DNA of 64,000 bases from the NCBI RefSeq assembly GCF_024298765.1, contig NZ_CP101210.1, one strand, 5' to 3'. Origin of the DNA: Escherichia coli. Lineage in GTDB: Bacteria; Pseudomonadota; Gammaproteobacteria; Enterobacterales; Enterobacteriaceae. Below are positions 21,001-30,000 of this stretch, in pieces. A program made the position numbers. The stretch's first letter is position 1. Every line of letters begins with the position of its first letter.

Positions 21001-24000
21001 TGTTCGCATTTTTAAAATCGGCAAAAATGCGAGAAGAGCAGCTATATTATGGATGAACTGAAAAGTGCCCGGGAGCAACAAAAAAGGCGTGATGAACGTG
21101 CTGATGGTTCCGTTCCGCTGAAACTGTCCGGAAAAATCCACAAACAGCCTGAAAGTATTGCCCGAAGTCGTGGTGCCCCCCAAAAAAACTGTTGAATGAA
21201 ATGATTGAGCTGGCGTACCAGGATTTTGTGGCAAATGAGCAGCACAAGACTCGGAGTTAAAGACTGCAGGGCCCCGGTTACCAATTCTGCAGCATACACA
21301 ACGAATGTATCCGGCTCTTACCTGTGAGGGGCACGAAAATTATACATTGAGCATGAGTGGATAATCCCGGGTGAGAGTCTCCCGTTTTACACTATTCACT
21401 AAAGGTGAGGCATATCATTCAGTCTCTCTGAATTCTTCATTTCAGTAACTTCAGCTACCTTCGTTTCATCTCCCCCACGAACCGGGGCCGCAGCTTGTTG
21501 TATCAATACCAAATTGTTGGTCATTACTGTCCTGTATCACTGGGCTGGCAAGTGAACTGAAATCCGCACCTTAATATTCTGACTGGCTGCGTACATTCAT
21601 GGCATGAAGCGGCCGGAACGGCTGAGCTGAAGGTCCGTTGTGAGCGAACAGCGGACATTCACTACACATGGTTCAAACATGAACCGGAGCTTTATTGTCT
21701 AGCTGTCAGTGTACTGCGATTTACCCGCTCGGTTGTCCAGAAAATCGGTCTGAAATCCAGTCATTAAAGGGCCTTAGCCTGACATTAAGCAACTTGGTAG
21801 GCGGATAGATAATAGAAATAGGAATGCGCAGGTCTGTCATGTTGCCTAGAACGGTGACAAGCTGTCCGGTGCGAAATCATTCCGGCAGCGACAGGCTCAT
21901 GTGTCAGCCCGACGCCCAGACCGTCAACGAGCATGTGGATCTGCGAGGCGTTATCGTTCGCAGCGATGTTAAAACGAACAATCTGCTCATCTTCTAGAAG
22001 CACAAGTGCTTTAATGACATTAAGGCGGTCTATATGTTGCATTACAGACTTCCTATTGATCTTTACCTGAGGCTGAAGCAACCACGTTAATCCGACTATT
22101 TTTCGATTGCACCATCCACTATCACCATCGATCTTCCCTGAGCACAACGTTCAACTCTCCCGCGTACGCCGTATACCTGCGCAAGGCTCTCTGCATGGAT
22201 CACCGTTTGCGGGTCGCCGCTGTCGATAAGTTTCCCCTCTTTCAGCATGATGACCTGGGCGGCATGCCGCAGTGCGATATTGATATCGTGTAAGACGACC
22301 AGCGTAACCATATTGCGTCTTCGCGTTTCGCGCGATACAACATCCATCACATGGAACTGATAATTGAGATCCAGCGCGCTCAGTGGTTCATCCAGCAATA
22401 ATAATGCGGGGCGGCGAATAAGCGACTGTGCAAGCCCCACCAGCTGCTTCTGACCGCCGGACAGGCTATCGAGGTAGTTCATTGCCAGATGTGCGATGCC
22501 TAGCTCTTCGAGCAGCGCTATAGCCTGCGCCTGATTTTGCCCGGCGCCGGAGGCGCGCTGGGCGACAACCACCGACTCCAGCACCTGTAAATGCACGCCC
22601 TGCGGCAGGGACTGCGGCAGGAACACAACTTTTTCAGCCCGACGAGCAAACGGCAGCGATAAGAGATTCTCTTCATTCAGCCAGGCTTCGCCACTGGCGC
22701 GATTTAGCCCGGCCAGGGCGCGCAGTAGCGTTGATTTACCGCAGCCATTAGGCCCCAGCAGTACAGTGACTTCGCCGCGCGGCAGCGTAGAAATCGACAG
22801 ATGCTCAATAATCCGCCGTTTGCCGTAACCGGCGCACAGCGCATTAATCGTAAGCCCGCTCATGACATACTCCCTCGATGACGCATTACAATGCTCAGAA
22901 AGAACGGAACGCCTACCAGCGAGGTAACAATTCCTACCGGTAAAATGACACCGGGAATGATGTTCTTCGACGCTACCGAGGCCAGCGATAGCACCAGCCC
23001 ACCGATAAGGATGCTTCCGGGCAAATAAAAGCGATGATCTTCTCCCAGCAACAGGCGGGAAATATGCGGTGCAACCAGGCCAATAAAGCCAATTGGCCCC
23101 ACAAACGCAACCGAAAGGGCCGCCAGCAGGCTGATGCGCAGCAGGGAACCCAGGCGCAAACGGCGAACATCAATGCCAAAACTCATCGCCCGCTCTTCGC
23201 CGAGGCGTAGCGCGGTAAGCTGCCAGGCACGACGCAGCGACCAGGGTAAAACAATCGCCATCGCCGCCGCCAGCACCGCCAGTTTCTCCCATGATGCGCG
23301 AGCCAGGCTGCCCATCGTCCAGAACACCAGGCCCTGCAAAGTATCTTCATCGGCGACAAACTGCATAATGGACACCAGCGCATTGAAGGTAAACACCAGC
23401 GCAATCCCAAACAGCACAACGCCCGACGTCGGCACGCGCGTCCAGCGGGTCAGACTATCGAGCAGCAGGGCGGACAGGAGCGCAAAAAGAAAAGCGTTTG
23501 CCGGTATAAACCCGCTTTCGGGAACGCCGGGAATACCGATGCCCAGAACAATCGCCAGCGCTGCGCCAAAGGCCGCCGCCGACGAAACGCCAAGCGTAAA
23601 CGGGCTGGCGAGGGAGTTATTCAGAATAGTTTGCATCTCTGCCCCGGCCAAACCCAGCGCCATTCCTACCAGGAGCGCCATCAGCGCATAGGGCAAACGG
23701 ATGTCCCAAACGATAACCCGCATGCCGTTAGTCGCCCCGGACGGATGCATCAAAGTCTTTATCAGCGAATGTAAAGGGAGCCCTGAGGGGCCGAGGGTGA
23801 AATCGAGCAGCAGCGAAGCAATGATAGCGATAAAAATAACCGCCAGTATTACCAGACGCTGGCGAAAAAGCTGGCGATAGCGGTTCTCGACCGACAGCGT
23901 ACTTTCCAATACAGTCATGGTTTTTCACAGCCTCCGTTAGCGCGGCGGATTGAGCACATCGCTCATCTGCGCATCGCTTAACGTCAGGCCAAAGAACTGC

Positions 24001-27000: not shown

Positions 27001-30000
27001 GACAATCATTTCATCTTCAGAAGTAGACGAGGCATGAGCATGAAGCGGTATGAAAGACGCTAATGCTGGCAAAAGCGCAGCGAAAGTTATTTGAGTTTTC
27101 ATGAATCACTGATCGTTATGTAAATATTTATATTACGATCGGTGCATAGGCAAAATTATGATCCAGATCACACGTGAATGTAAGTTATTTACAAATTACG
27201 CTAACCTTCTGTCTCCGCTCTTTGCAGCATAAAAGTATGGCGGCGCGTTGTTGAAAGCAGGAGCGGCCGGGTTGTCAGAAAGCTGGTTTGGACGCAAGTA
27301 ATATATAACAACTCTGATTACCGCATACTGTCAGGACAGTATCTACTTGAGCGTCCGCCTTTGGCACAGAGCGGACGATATCACTGAGCTGAAGGTCCGC
27401 TGAGAGCGAGGAGCGGAAGTAAGCATGTATCTGCTAATGCGAAAAATCACTAACGAAACATTGGATCCCCATTGTTGCCGATCTTTAGTGGCGTTCAAGA
27501 TTAGCCCCAATCCTGATTATCATTTGATTACACTGACTGAAATGATATAAAACCTAATTATCTGATATTTGTAGGGGTTTAGTAATGTCACTTCCTGTTC
27601 CTTTTGGTGCAATTGTTACAGTAGTGAAGAAATGCTGGTCTACTCTTACCCAGATAATGCTGATAAAAACTTATCAACTCTCACATGAGCGCTGGGCAGT
27701 GAGACACAGGCTAGGGGCGAGCTGGCATTCCTTAGGGAATTATTTGGAGTACAGTCTACGATTTGCTCAGTTGACAGATAAAGAACCTCGTTGTTCACGT
27801 ATTGCTTTCAGAAGCAAAGAGGAACGACTGCAACAAGTTGAACTTGTTTTTGAAGCCATTGGCAGTGGCTTACGCTACCAAGAAACACTATGCATTCATG
27901 ATGTAAATAACTCACCGATAATATTAACGCTTTCAAATATTCCTACACTTGATGTACTTATTCTAGATGATGGATTCGCATTTACGGTTGAACAGTACCA
28001 GTTAAAATATTGCACGATAAAATTAATGACTGGTGAAAGTATATCTATTGACAATTCGCCCAAATATTCGCTAATGCAAAACTGGTGTCTCAATGATACA
28101 TGGAAACGGCGTTGGGGTATCATCTGGAACTGTAATGCAATTGAATGTGCCCGAAGGCGTATTGCTGAATATTGGAAATGGGGCTTTTGTCTGCCGTTAG
28201 TGGGACGCCCCCCGTTATATTCACCATCGCGAAAAGGTATTCATCTGTTTGAAGCAAAACCGTTACGCTGGTTTATGACACGCCCATGGTGTCTGAATAT
28301 CCAGTTTTGGACGGCAATTTGGTCAGGACTGTTTATTCTCAGCGATGAGAATGTCTTGCAATGGCGCTGGAAAGAGCCACCACAACAAGACTAACTTTCA
28401 CGAAGGCCGTCCGCTCTGAGCGAGGAGCGGACCTCAGTGCTGGTTAGATTAACTAGTCTAATTGTGACTACCTAATTTGAAACGATATAAAAATGGTATG
28501 ATACATGATCACTAATCTTTATCTGGAATATCTCTCGCATCGTAATAATCAATCCCAAGTCCAAAGCTTAACTCAAGCCCCTCAGGACCTCCGTGGATAT
28601 CGCCAACCCCAAATGTATTTGGAGCATTATTATTTCTGAATTTTTCAAGATCATTTTTATTTGGAGGCGATTTGTCGTCATTAGAGAGATCTGGAAGTGG
28701 ATCTAACTCAAAATAATCAACTCCAGCAGGGTTATAGGCAAGGTAAAAATTTCTATAGTTGCCAGGATTTCCTAAATAATGCCCTTCTTCATATTGATAG
28801 AACTTCGAAGAATAGCTCGACTGTAAATAATCAATATCACTTCCAAAATCTTTGAACTTATGTCCAAGGGTTTTTCTCAGATATGGTACTTCAGGATGAA
28901 AATTCTCATCCTTGCTGGTTACGGAATAGAGTATCACTGTGTTATTATTATCATAAACCACTTGCAGATAGAACTTTTTGAAAGAGTAAATATACTCATG
29001 AACCCTCCCATCCTCAGAATGTTCTTCCTTCACGGGAGGGCCAAAAATTGACTCGATGTACTTTATTGACGCTCCGGTGTAAATCACATGAAGATTATCC
29101 TCTGCTTTTTTTTGCAAAAAATTATCTGCGATATGTTGATATAAATCAAACACTCCGTTCAATGCAACAAAATATCCAAGAACAGCAAGAATACCACTCA
29201 AAAAAACAGTAATTAATGATTTTTTAAGTTTTTTAGGGGGATGTGACATAGTTCCTCTCTTTTTGTTTTTTAATTTTTTTGGAGTGTATCATGATTTCTC
29301 TCTTATTTTTTCAAAATTCTATTTATTTCTGAATGCAAAGTAAAACGCTGACATGCAAAAAAGTCATTCTTATTTAAGATTAAGTCAAAAATTTATCGAA
29401 AGACATTCTATTAATCTTACATGAATAGAGCAACGTCCGCATCTGGCACAGGACTGCTGTTGCAGCCCTGGCAACCTTAGACTTCAATCGATTCAGAGAT
29501 CTCTAACGCATCATCGACTTCAATGCCCAGATAACGGACTGTGCTTTCCAGTTTCTTATGGCCTAACAGAAGTTGGATCACCCTGAGATTCTTAGTTTTC
29601 TTGTAAATCAGGTAAGGTTTTGTTCTTCTCAAGGAATGTGTACTGTAAAGCGAATCTTCGAGACCAAGTTTTGCTACCCACCCATGAAAAATTCGGTTGT
29701 ATTGCCGGGTTGATATGTGTTGGTTAGTACCGACCCGAGATCGGAACAAATAGTCTTTACTGCGTAAATTGCCAAGCTTTATCAATGCAGAAACAGCTTC
29801 TCTTGTCCCTTTGGTTATCTCAAATTGGACAGGGCTGCCGGTTTTCTGTTGTAGAACCGTAGCTCTGCTTGAAACAGAGCTACCATATGCAACATCAGAT
29901 ACTTTGAGTTTGACTAGATCACAGCCTCGAAGCTTACTGTCCAAGGCCATGTTGAACAGAGCTAAATCGCGTGTTTTACCTTCCAGTTCAAGTCGGATTC

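Follow-up and report, generated by a model that had tools for sequence, protein, structure and literature searches.

We examined a 64,000-nt stretch of an Escherichia coli genome (contig NZ_CP101210.1 of RefSeq assembly GCF_024298765.1; 'the window' below, with coordinates counted from its first nucleotide) and, within it, a four-gene island operon encoding a TonB-dependent outer-membrane receptor and an ATP-binding cassette (ABC) importer. This unit is the known E. coli fbp locus ('fbp1', c0294-c0297), which the literature files under iron acquisition without giving a substrate or a regulator. Our analysis points to ModE instead: the fbp promoter appears to carry a ModE operator rather than a Fur box, and the operon is probably a molybdenum scavenger that has been assigned to the wrong metal. 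With reasonable, though far from full, confidence we propose that fbp is a self-contained 5.1-kb module whose master regulator is ModE, not Fur, and which imports a molybdenum or tungsten species. An earlier reading of the same DNA (the original prediction) had taken the operon for an iron-uptake system, and that interpretation is its weakest part.

The fbp promoter carries a predicted ModE operator

Upstream of the receptor gene lies a 28-bp inverted repeat (27112-27139, core 27114-27137) that ends 11 nt before the receptor ATG and that we predict to be a ModE operator. Read on the minus strand (27139-27112), the repeat is ATCGTAATATA-AATATT-TACATAACGAT, and when the upstream regions of E. 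coli, Citrobacter koseri and Citrobacter freundii are aligned, a ~35-nt block just before the ATG is nearly invariant. The site agrees with the E. coli ModE consensus ATCGNTATATA-N6-TATATANCGAT, as given by Rodionov et al. (2004; PMC545781), who cite Studholme & Pau (2003), at 18 of 20 specified positions, which places it, as a predicted site, with the operators of the ModE regulon. The modA operators, read directly from C. koseri (CGCTATATTTGCGCCTACATAACG) and E. coli (CGCTATATTGACGCCTACATAACG, 19 nt before the modA ATG), share with it the same 24-bp core, CGnnATATn-N6-TAYATAACG, and an identical right half-site, TACATAACG. The E. coli modABC operator, like the fbp site, sits just upstream of a start codon. 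However, modABC encodes a type I importer, whereas the fbp site precedes a TonB-dependent receptor and a type II ABC importer, and the fbp promoter, unlike that of modABC, has an additional CRP/FNR-type site at a fixed distance of 27 nt.

Scanning with an idealised ModE pattern, at up to three mismatches, gave a single match in the 64-kb window and no match in 100 shuffles. Among the other loci scanned initially, sites at the same threshold were confined to the upstream regions of fbp-type receptors and to modA. The consensus sites of other regulators (Zur, NikR, MntR, TyrR, NsrR, ArgR and the LacI family) were compared with the palindrome, and none fitted. An RNA element was also considered and rejected, as the region has no Rfam match and the combination of conserved half-sites with a free spacer argues for a protein operator over a hairpin. 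The literature that we searched, an incomplete set beyond which earlier predictions may exist, contained no report tying ModE to fbp or to enteric TonB-dependent receptors, and no example of a molybdenum TonB-dependent receptor under ModE.

The operator is conserved across genera and operon architectures

A search with an alignment of the binding protein yielded 51 orthologous loci (570 kb; one genome per species) from more than 20 genera. These included Cedecea, Pseudocitrobacter, Citrobacter, Klebsiella (K. spallanzanii), Kluyvera, Leclercia, Franconibacter, Enterobacter, Pluralibacter, Serratia, Yokenella, Mixta, Providencia, Morganella, Brenneria, Pantoea, Erwinia, Mangrovibacter, Pectobacterium, Shewanella, Paracoccus, Azotobacter, Nitrobacter and Azoarcus. 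Exactly one ModE-type site (at most three mismatches) was present in 40 of the 51 loci, with no further match in the 570 kb, and in 39 of these 40 (37 tabulated) it lies just upstream of the receptor gene. In Shewanella mangrovi a box with one mismatch (locus L046, 5752-5775) precedes the binding-protein gene instead, the order being receptor, ATPase, permease, box and binding protein. The Nitrobacter sites are weaker, with three mismatches. The distance between the end of the box and the receptor ATG is ~10-16 nt in most enterobacterial orthologues; a few boxes are farther away, ~175 nt in the case of Providencia burhodogranariea (L031). A distant orthologue from a high-GC genome, the binding protein of which is 46% identical, has two AT-rich ModE-type boxes before the receptor.

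The 37 tabulated sites give the consensus gatCGTAATATAaannTTTATATAACGAt. Each half-site position carries ~1-2 bits of information (most 1.6-2.0), a spacer position ~0.2-1.1 and a flanking position at most 0.8. Compared with the Cedecea and Pseudocitrobacter orthologues, the ratio of non-synonymous to synonymous substitution rates (dN/dS) of the genes is 0.03-0.08, so that they are under purifying selection, and the synonymous rate itself (dS) is ~1 in the coding regions, which means that synonymous sites are near saturation. Because the half-sites are conserved at this divergence, these non-coding positions must be under strong constraint.

The box accompanies two operon architectures. All four genes are found together in E. 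coli, Citrobacter, Cedecea colo, Pseudocitrobacter, K. spallanzanii, Pluralibacter, Yokenella and Franconibacter, and the non-enteric loci have weaker permease and ATPase homologues nearby. Only the receptor and the binding protein are present in Serratia, Kluyvera, Providencia, Morganella, Pantoea, Erwinia, Mixta, Mangrovibacter and Pectobacterium; these pair-only loci (L020, L023, L024, L026, L029-L044 and L050) keep the ModE box and have no permease or ATPase gene in the vicinity. As the box occurs with both architectures, the receptor and binding-protein pair is the conserved core of the system. In the pair-only loci the binding protein may use an importer encoded elsewhere, a possibility consistent with its retention of two glutamates, E87 and E225, which are invariant in 44 homologues and which we suspect to be the permease-docking residues. 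We are evenly divided on a broader proposal, namely that a conserved TonB-dependent pathway for molybdenum or tungsten, controlled by ModE, is formed by the receptor and the binding protein, whether or not an importer of their own is present, in Enterobacterales and also in Shewanella, with weaker sites in Nitrobacter. A Mo-catecholate 'molybdophore' may be what such a pathway imports, and anaerobic or carbon-limited molybdenum starvation may be the only condition that switches it on, through the FNR/CRP-type site.

A catecholate carrier is weakly hinted at by the neighbourhood in Mixta spp. (L029, 55-3563; also L030 and L032), where an SstABCD-like catechol(amine)-iron ABC transporter lies directly upstream of the ModE box and receptor. 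The set is complete, with an SstD-like binding protein, two FecCD permeases and an ATPase. We also asked whether the Azotobacter vinelandii orthologue (~2.70 Mb) is one of the VnfA1-dependent receptors of that species (Avin_30860, Avin_39890, Avin_47130); by a rough estimate of position, it is not. This orthologous locus (L048) has no clear ModE box.

A second conserved site and the promoter layout

A CRP/FNR-family activator-type site (TGTGATCTGGATCATA; 27157-27172, minus strand; core TGAT-N4-ATCA) lies 27 nt upstream of the ModE box, with its centre at 27164/27165, and is conserved in E. coli, C. koseri and C. freundii. Among the 37 loci, xTGAT-N4-ATCAx is centred exactly 27 nt upstream of the box in 21 and, as judged by eye, at 26 nt in about 6 more. 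The T, G, A and T, C, A of the two halves are invariant in the 21 loci, which were chosen for their match to the core. The motif is compatible with the core of FNR (TTGAT-N4-ATCAA) as well as with that of CRP (TGTGA-N6-TCACA), with a left half that looks CRP-like (GTGA in 13 of 21 loci) and a right half that looks FNR-like (ATCAA being commonest).

If this were a class II activator site at -41.5, transcription would start near 27123 and the -10 hexamer would be TAATAT at 27135-27130 (minus strand), inside the left ModE half-site, a placement derived from the coordinates and the fixed spacing. A generic sigma-70 scan picks CTTACA-18-CATAAT at 27184-27155 instead, the -10 of which is not conserved in Citrobacter; with that promoter the ModE box would lie just downstream of the start, again in a repressing position. 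For the modA promoter, too, the -10 is reported to lie inside the left half-site (Grunden et al. 1999). ModE bound over such a -10 would keep RNA polymerase out. The region is also rich in Dam sites: four GATC sequences fall within ~60 nt (27111-27170), where ~0.25 would be expected by chance, two of them within the CRP/FNR-type site (TGATCtgGATCA) and one flanking each end of the ModE box. The arrangements TGATC..GATCA and cGATCG are kept in many orthologues.

The fbp locus is a self-contained module

Four open reading frames (ORFs) occupy 22096-27102 on the minus strand. They encode an fbpA-type TonB-dependent outer-membrane receptor (24937-27102, 721 amino acids (aa); c0294 of strain CFT073, RefSeq WP_000856947.1), an fbpB-type periplasmic binding protein (23937-24929, 330 aa; PF01497; the RefSeq start is at 24926), a single FecCD-family permease (22860-23918, 352 aa; PF01032 at 4.8e-82) and an ABC ATPase (22096-22863, 255 aa; PF00005, ABC_tran). 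Successive genes are separated by 7 nt and 18 nt and then overlap by 4 nt (permease stop and ATPase start), so that the description of a four-gene island operon with adjacent or overlapping starts and stops, given in the original prediction, holds for all four ORFs.

The 6.1 kb around the operon are 100% identical to positions 273515-279615 of E. coli CFT073, in the pathogenicity island (PAI) PAI-aspV. The whole window corresponds to CFT073 237115-301114 in reverse, that is, to PAI-CFT073-aspV with the adjoining tRNA-Asp and rrn operon. According to a review of E. coli islands (PMC7545054), PAI-aspV and PAI-cobU of CFT073 each contain an "fbp system" (fbpABCD, "Fe acquisition"); the locus here is identical with that system, and the second CFT073 copy is c2515-c2518 in PAI-cobU. 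Among complete E. coli genomes, 1631 of 5426 have a match and 899 of 5426 have a complete copy.

Comparison by blastn with Cedecea colo, Pseudocitrobacter and Citrobacter delimits a conserved module comprising the promoter and the four genes (22094-27178, minus strand). DNA homology extends only from 27178 to 22094-22133; it starts 76 nt upstream of the receptor ATG and ends exactly at the ATPase stop (22094-22097). In C. koseri and C. freundii the same four genes stand alone between aroG and gpmA. We propose that the module was acquired from a Cedecea-, Pseudocitrobacter- or Citrobacter-like lineage, in which it is chromosomal.

The encoded proteins indicate a small metal-chelate or oxyanion cargo

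The receptor contains Plug (PF07715) and TonB_dep_Rec_b-barrel (PF00593) domains and scores 287.9 bits against TIGR01783 (cutoff 223.5); with a plug and a 22-strand barrel and a score above the curated cutoff, it belongs to the TonB-dependent siderophore receptor subfamily. Equivalog models for FhuA, FoxA, Fiu, PqqU, BtuB and others scored far below their cutoffs (FhuA, 155.6 against 803). Read from the translation, its N terminus has a signal peptide followed by a TonB-box-like EDEMIVTGN at residues ~29-37, and it has no N-terminal signalling domain. The closest solved relatives are FemA of Pseudomonas aeruginosa (mycobactin, 5e-68) and BauA of Acinetobacter baumannii (acinetobactin, 5e-58), followed by FetA (enantio-pyochelin, 1e-32), FhuA (4e-26) and also CntO. 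FemA and BauA are of the same plug and 22-strand barrel family and were matched over nearly their full length. FemA, however, has an N-terminal signalling domain, and both FemA and BauA are controlled by Fur and iron, whereas the fbp receptor has neither a signalling domain nor a Fur box. TonB-dependent uptake also serves purposes other than iron import, as with zinc (ZnuD, under Zur), nickel (FrpB4, under NikR) and pseudopaline (CntO). The same logic would apply to fbp, with a siderophore-receptor-like transporter placed under the sensor of another metal.

The binding protein is a Peripla_BP_2 member with a cluster-A (BtuF/FhuD-like) fold (AlphaFold2 model, pLDDT 92). Its top Foldseek matches are 4ovk and 4hn9, both uncharacterised, and then MolA (3psa; TM 0.73, 24% identity), with further matches to Yersinia YiuA (iron and a catechol fragment) and Helicobacter pylori CeuE (Ni-His). 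Its nearest characterised structural relatives thus include MolA, the molybdate/tungstate binder of Haemophilus influenzae, to which it also has a sequence match (HI_1472, 6e-16), mainly in the C-terminal lobe. The permease matched HmuU (5e-49), BhuU (2.5e-48), HI1471 (2.6e-40) and BtuC (2.5e-34) in the PDB and, by analogy with BtuC, HmuU and MolB, the single permease should act as a homodimer. The best NCBIfam matches of the ATPase are to heme, FecE and FhuC ATPases, all below the equivalog cutoffs. A FecCD permease, encoded by one ORF, a cluster-A binding protein and an ATPase occur together, as in type II (BtuCD/HmuUV-like) ABC importers.

The MolBC-A system of H. influenzae (HI1470/HI1471/HI1472) has the same architecture of cluster-A binding protein, homodimeric FecCD permease and ATPase, and MolA ranks within the first three structural matches to the fbp binding protein (TM 0.73). 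The two systems are nevertheless not orthologous, and the fbp operon adds an outer-membrane receptor. We rejected orthology on the 24% identity to MolA and on the permease, which is nearer to HmuU (5e-49) than to HI1471 (2.6e-40); HI1470 was absent from the ATPase matches at a threshold of 1e-35. Taken together, the proteins indicate a small metal-chelate or oxyanion cargo and do not name the metal itself, and the assignment of the metal is therefore based on the regulator. This agrees with the earlier view that the substrate could not be assigned from sequence alone, as all the equivalog models of known substrate fell below their cutoffs.

Control by Fur and iron

Fur control was assessed by scanning a 19-bp consensus against 27050-27620 (570 nt) and the whole window. 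Neither scan gave a convincing Fur box: the best match in 27050-27620 (13 of 19 positions) is at 27509-27527, ~410 nt upstream of the ATG, and near the promoter the best is 12 of 19, leaving no Fur box that overlaps the promoter. The scan thus supports the original prediction, in which none could be seen by eye. Across the 37 orthologous promoters the best Fur scores were 10-14 of 19, slightly above shuffled controls, with no position-conserved site. The sole exception is P. burhodogranariea, in which a 16-of-19 match, GAAAATGATAATCTATATC, directly follows the ModE box (L031, ~3445-3465); there, control by both Fur and ModE may exist.

In published chromatin immunoprecipitation sequencing (ChIP-seq) of Fur in CFT073 (PMC7157518, Table S5A), a peak is assigned to c0294, with its summit at 273943 and a height of 39.95. 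The summit corresponds to window position 27172, 70 nt upstream of the ATG, at the CRP/FNR-type site. In the same data the peaks at ent/fep reach 2860-3485, at cirA 3050, at chuA 3245 and at c3775 2720. The fbp peak is thus ~1% of those at true iron promoters and is similar in size to dozens of peaks in insertion sequence (IS) elements and AT-rich island DNA, and c0294-c0297 are absent from the other supplementary tables of that study. A second weak peak (c0293; CFT073 272723, window ~28392) maps at the third copy of a direct repeat that is described below. With regard to expression, Hagan et al. found that fbpA1 and fbpA2 were not expressed in patients' urine or in vitro in uropathogenic E. 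coli (UPEC) strains; we equate these genes with c0294 and c2518 by inference from the existence of two copies.

These results bear on the possibility that fbp takes up a xenosiderophore or another iron chelate under Fur repression and that the palindrome is irrelevant to its function. The protein families fit this explanation, as the receptor passes TIGR01783 with FemA, BauA and FetA as its nearest solved relatives and the ABC components resemble heme and siderophore importers; so do the listing under iron acquisition (PMC7545054) and the position of the ChIP-seq peak 70 nt upstream of the ATG. We nevertheless consider it unlikely: no Fur match exceeds 12-13 of 19, the 37 promoters share no Fur box, whereas the ModE box is conserved in them, the ChIP-seq peak is ~1% of those at genuine targets and the operon is missing from the other tables, and the genes are unexpressed in urine, an iron-poor fluid, as well as in vitro. 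The iron-uptake label, which goes back to family resemblance only, is not borne out by genes that are unexpressed and by orthologues in which no Fur box is conserved. The original prediction had named the lack of a Fur site and of iron-dependent expression as what would refute it, and this is largely what was found, with a best match of 12-13 of 19 and no expression; the weak ChIP-seq peak (39.95) is the part that speaks for Fur.

A model for ModE-controlled uptake and its alternatives

We propose that, when molybdate is present, ModE-molybdate would bind 27112-27139, overlapping the predicted -10 and transcription start, and would block transcription as it does at modABC. When molybdenum is scarce, ModE would leave and a CRP/FNR-family activator bound 27 nt upstream, in a class II position, would switch the promoter on. 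The TonB-energised receptor would then bring a molybdenum or tungsten species through the outer membrane, the binding protein would capture it and the ABC importer would carry it into the cytoplasm. The cargo could be the oxyanion or, more likely in view of the relatives of the receptor, a small metal-chelate such as a Mo-catecholate. Four elements of this model are inferred: that ModE binds, in which direction it regulates, which activator acts and what the substrate is.

Several observations weigh against ModE control and a molybdenum cargo. At up to three mismatches, 11 of the 51 loci lack a box; two of these have degraded versions, and most of the remainder are either truncated contigs (several cases) or non-enteric genomes. 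The loci of Azotobacter, Paracoccus and Azoarcus represent genuine absences or divergent motifs. The receptor falls in the siderophore-receptor subfamily, and its nearest solved relatives (FemA, BauA and FetA) carry iron siderophores. The identity of the binding protein to MolA is only 24%, and it stands just as close to YiuA and CeuE, so that the protein sequences fail to single out molybdenum, and the permease is nearer to the heme permeases HmuU and BhuU than to MolB. Genes for molybdenum metabolism are not consistently adjacent to the orthologous loci. The proximity of modE-modABC in Citrobacter is merely the conserved gal-mod neighbourhood, and the MoCF_biosynth domain of a neighbour in Serratia probably belongs to a CinA-like protein. 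There is also the weak Fur ChIP-seq signal at the fbp promoter, and the literature searched shows no ModE binding to the fbp operon or molybdenum-dependent expression of it.

The evidence for a ModE operator would also apply if ModE regulated fbp and the cargo were not molybdenum, such that molybdenum starvation induces compensating import of iron or another metal-chelate. In Azotobacter, starvation for molybdenum or vanadium induces TonB-dependent 'siderophore' receptors and ABC transporters through VnfA1 (PMC9542535), the protein families fit an organic metal-chelate, and the pair in Mixta adjoins the SstABCD-like catechol-iron transporter. However, Enterobacterales have no known molybdenum-independent isoenzymes that would need a substitute metal, the logic of modABC is the simplest for a ModE-repressed importer, and MolA is among the nearest characterised relatives of the binding protein. 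We therefore regard this explanation as improbable. That fbp is silent island cargo, functional in Citrobacter-like donors and transcriptionally dead in E. coli (for example, through silencing by nucleoid proteins), would account for the lack of expression in every UPEC strain in vivo and in vitro and for the setting of pseudogenes, IS fragments and a truncated LysR gene, but it is quite unlikely given four intact ORFs and an intact promoter, two CFT073 copies with identical proteins, a complete copy in 899 of 5426 genomes, a dN/dS of 0.03-0.08 and the fact that non-expression is what a ModE-repressed promoter predicts in molybdenum-sufficient media.

Molybdenum uptake under ModE, our preferred reading, would have consequences beyond this locus. 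Molybdoenzymes, among them the nitrate, dimethyl sulfoxide and trimethylamine N-oxide reductases and the formate dehydrogenases, drive the anaerobic respiration of Enterobacteriaceae, which is the basis both of their blooms in the inflamed gut and of growth in the urinary tract, and poisoning of the molybdoenzyme pathway with tungstate has been proposed as a therapy. Molybdenum acquisition at scarcity is thought to rely on ModABC alone, and we know of no energised outer-membrane step. If our proposal is right, a ModE-controlled TonB-dependent system would supply that missing step, and no route of active molybdenum transport across the outer membrane would have been described in these bacteria before it; the annotation as an iron system, in use for two decades, would be wrong, and it would be explained why fbp never behaved like an iron system in studies of UPEC. 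More generally, annotation as a 'siderophore receptor' tells nothing of the metal that is sensed. The model of control by ModE is directly testable.

Island context, second copy and flanking elements

The second fbp copy of CFT073, in PAI-cobU (2351412-2357743; L002, 5413-11744), encodes identical proteins. The two copies are 99.2% identical over window 21052-27376, and the flanking backbone that they share is only 85-97% identical, which suggests recent gene conversion or exchange of the module between the two islands. A direct repeat of ~56-70 nt brackets the operon together with a LysR relic: its downstream copy (21600-21655, plus strand) and upstream copy (27362-27417, plus strand) are 77% identical and 5762 nt apart, and the upstream copy holds the point at which homology with the second CFT073 copy breaks (27376). 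The repeat consists of two GTCCGC...GCGGAC hairpins and its core, CTGAGCTGAAGGTCCG, occurs exactly twice in the window. A partial third copy is present at 28409-28431, and the repeat, which may be a scar of recombination or a small mobile element of repeat type, has no Rfam match.

The LysR-type relic lies downstream of the operon (21721-22042, minus strand) and, as found by three-frame translation, is a frameshifted C-terminal third that comprises part of the effector-binding domain only, without a helix-turn-helix. The original prediction had suggested that an ORF at 21785-22147 may be the remnant of a regulator. That ORF is present, with a TTG start and 120 aa; its first 52 nt overlap the 3' end of the ATPase gene, and the obvious continuation of its 3' part is in another frame, as the relic spans two frames. 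Once stitched, the relic (106 aa) matches positions 130-208 of 209 of LysR_substrate (PF03466; E 5e-7, 29.8 bits, cutoff 28), so its origin as a regulator remnant stands. It is not an intact LysR regulator, which would have HTH_1 and a full LysR_substrate domain in one frame, and only fragments of up to 106 aa were found in the protein database, with no full-length parent. Its tie to the operon does not hold: DNA homology does not continue past the ATPase stop, and in Cedecea, Pseudocitrobacter and Citrobacter the operon has no LysR gene beside it. We therefore rejected the relic as a regulator of the operon; it belongs to the island backbone.

Compared with the PAI-cobU copy, the window contains a 4.2-kb insertion (27377-31620) between the fbp promoter and genes for a dynamin-family protein, an RdcB-family protein and a patatin-like phospholipase. 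The insertion contains a 269-aa ORF (27585-28394; no Pfam match), an ETEC_3214-family gene, an integrase fragment and a hypothetical gene. The trio of dynamin, RdcB-family and patatin-like phospholipase genes is common to both islands. In the window, the dynamin-family gene and a neighbouring hypothetical gene (31621-36900) are frameshifted pseudogenes, and both are intact in the PAI-cobU copy. Two tRNA genes (48621-48694 and 56846-56919) have identical scores and are annotated as tRNA-Asp in CFT073; one follows the rrn operon and the other is the island attachment site after dnaQ (the interval 56973-62073 is also listed with them). The island proper starts just left of 48621, with debris of DUF4942, IS66 and IS21.

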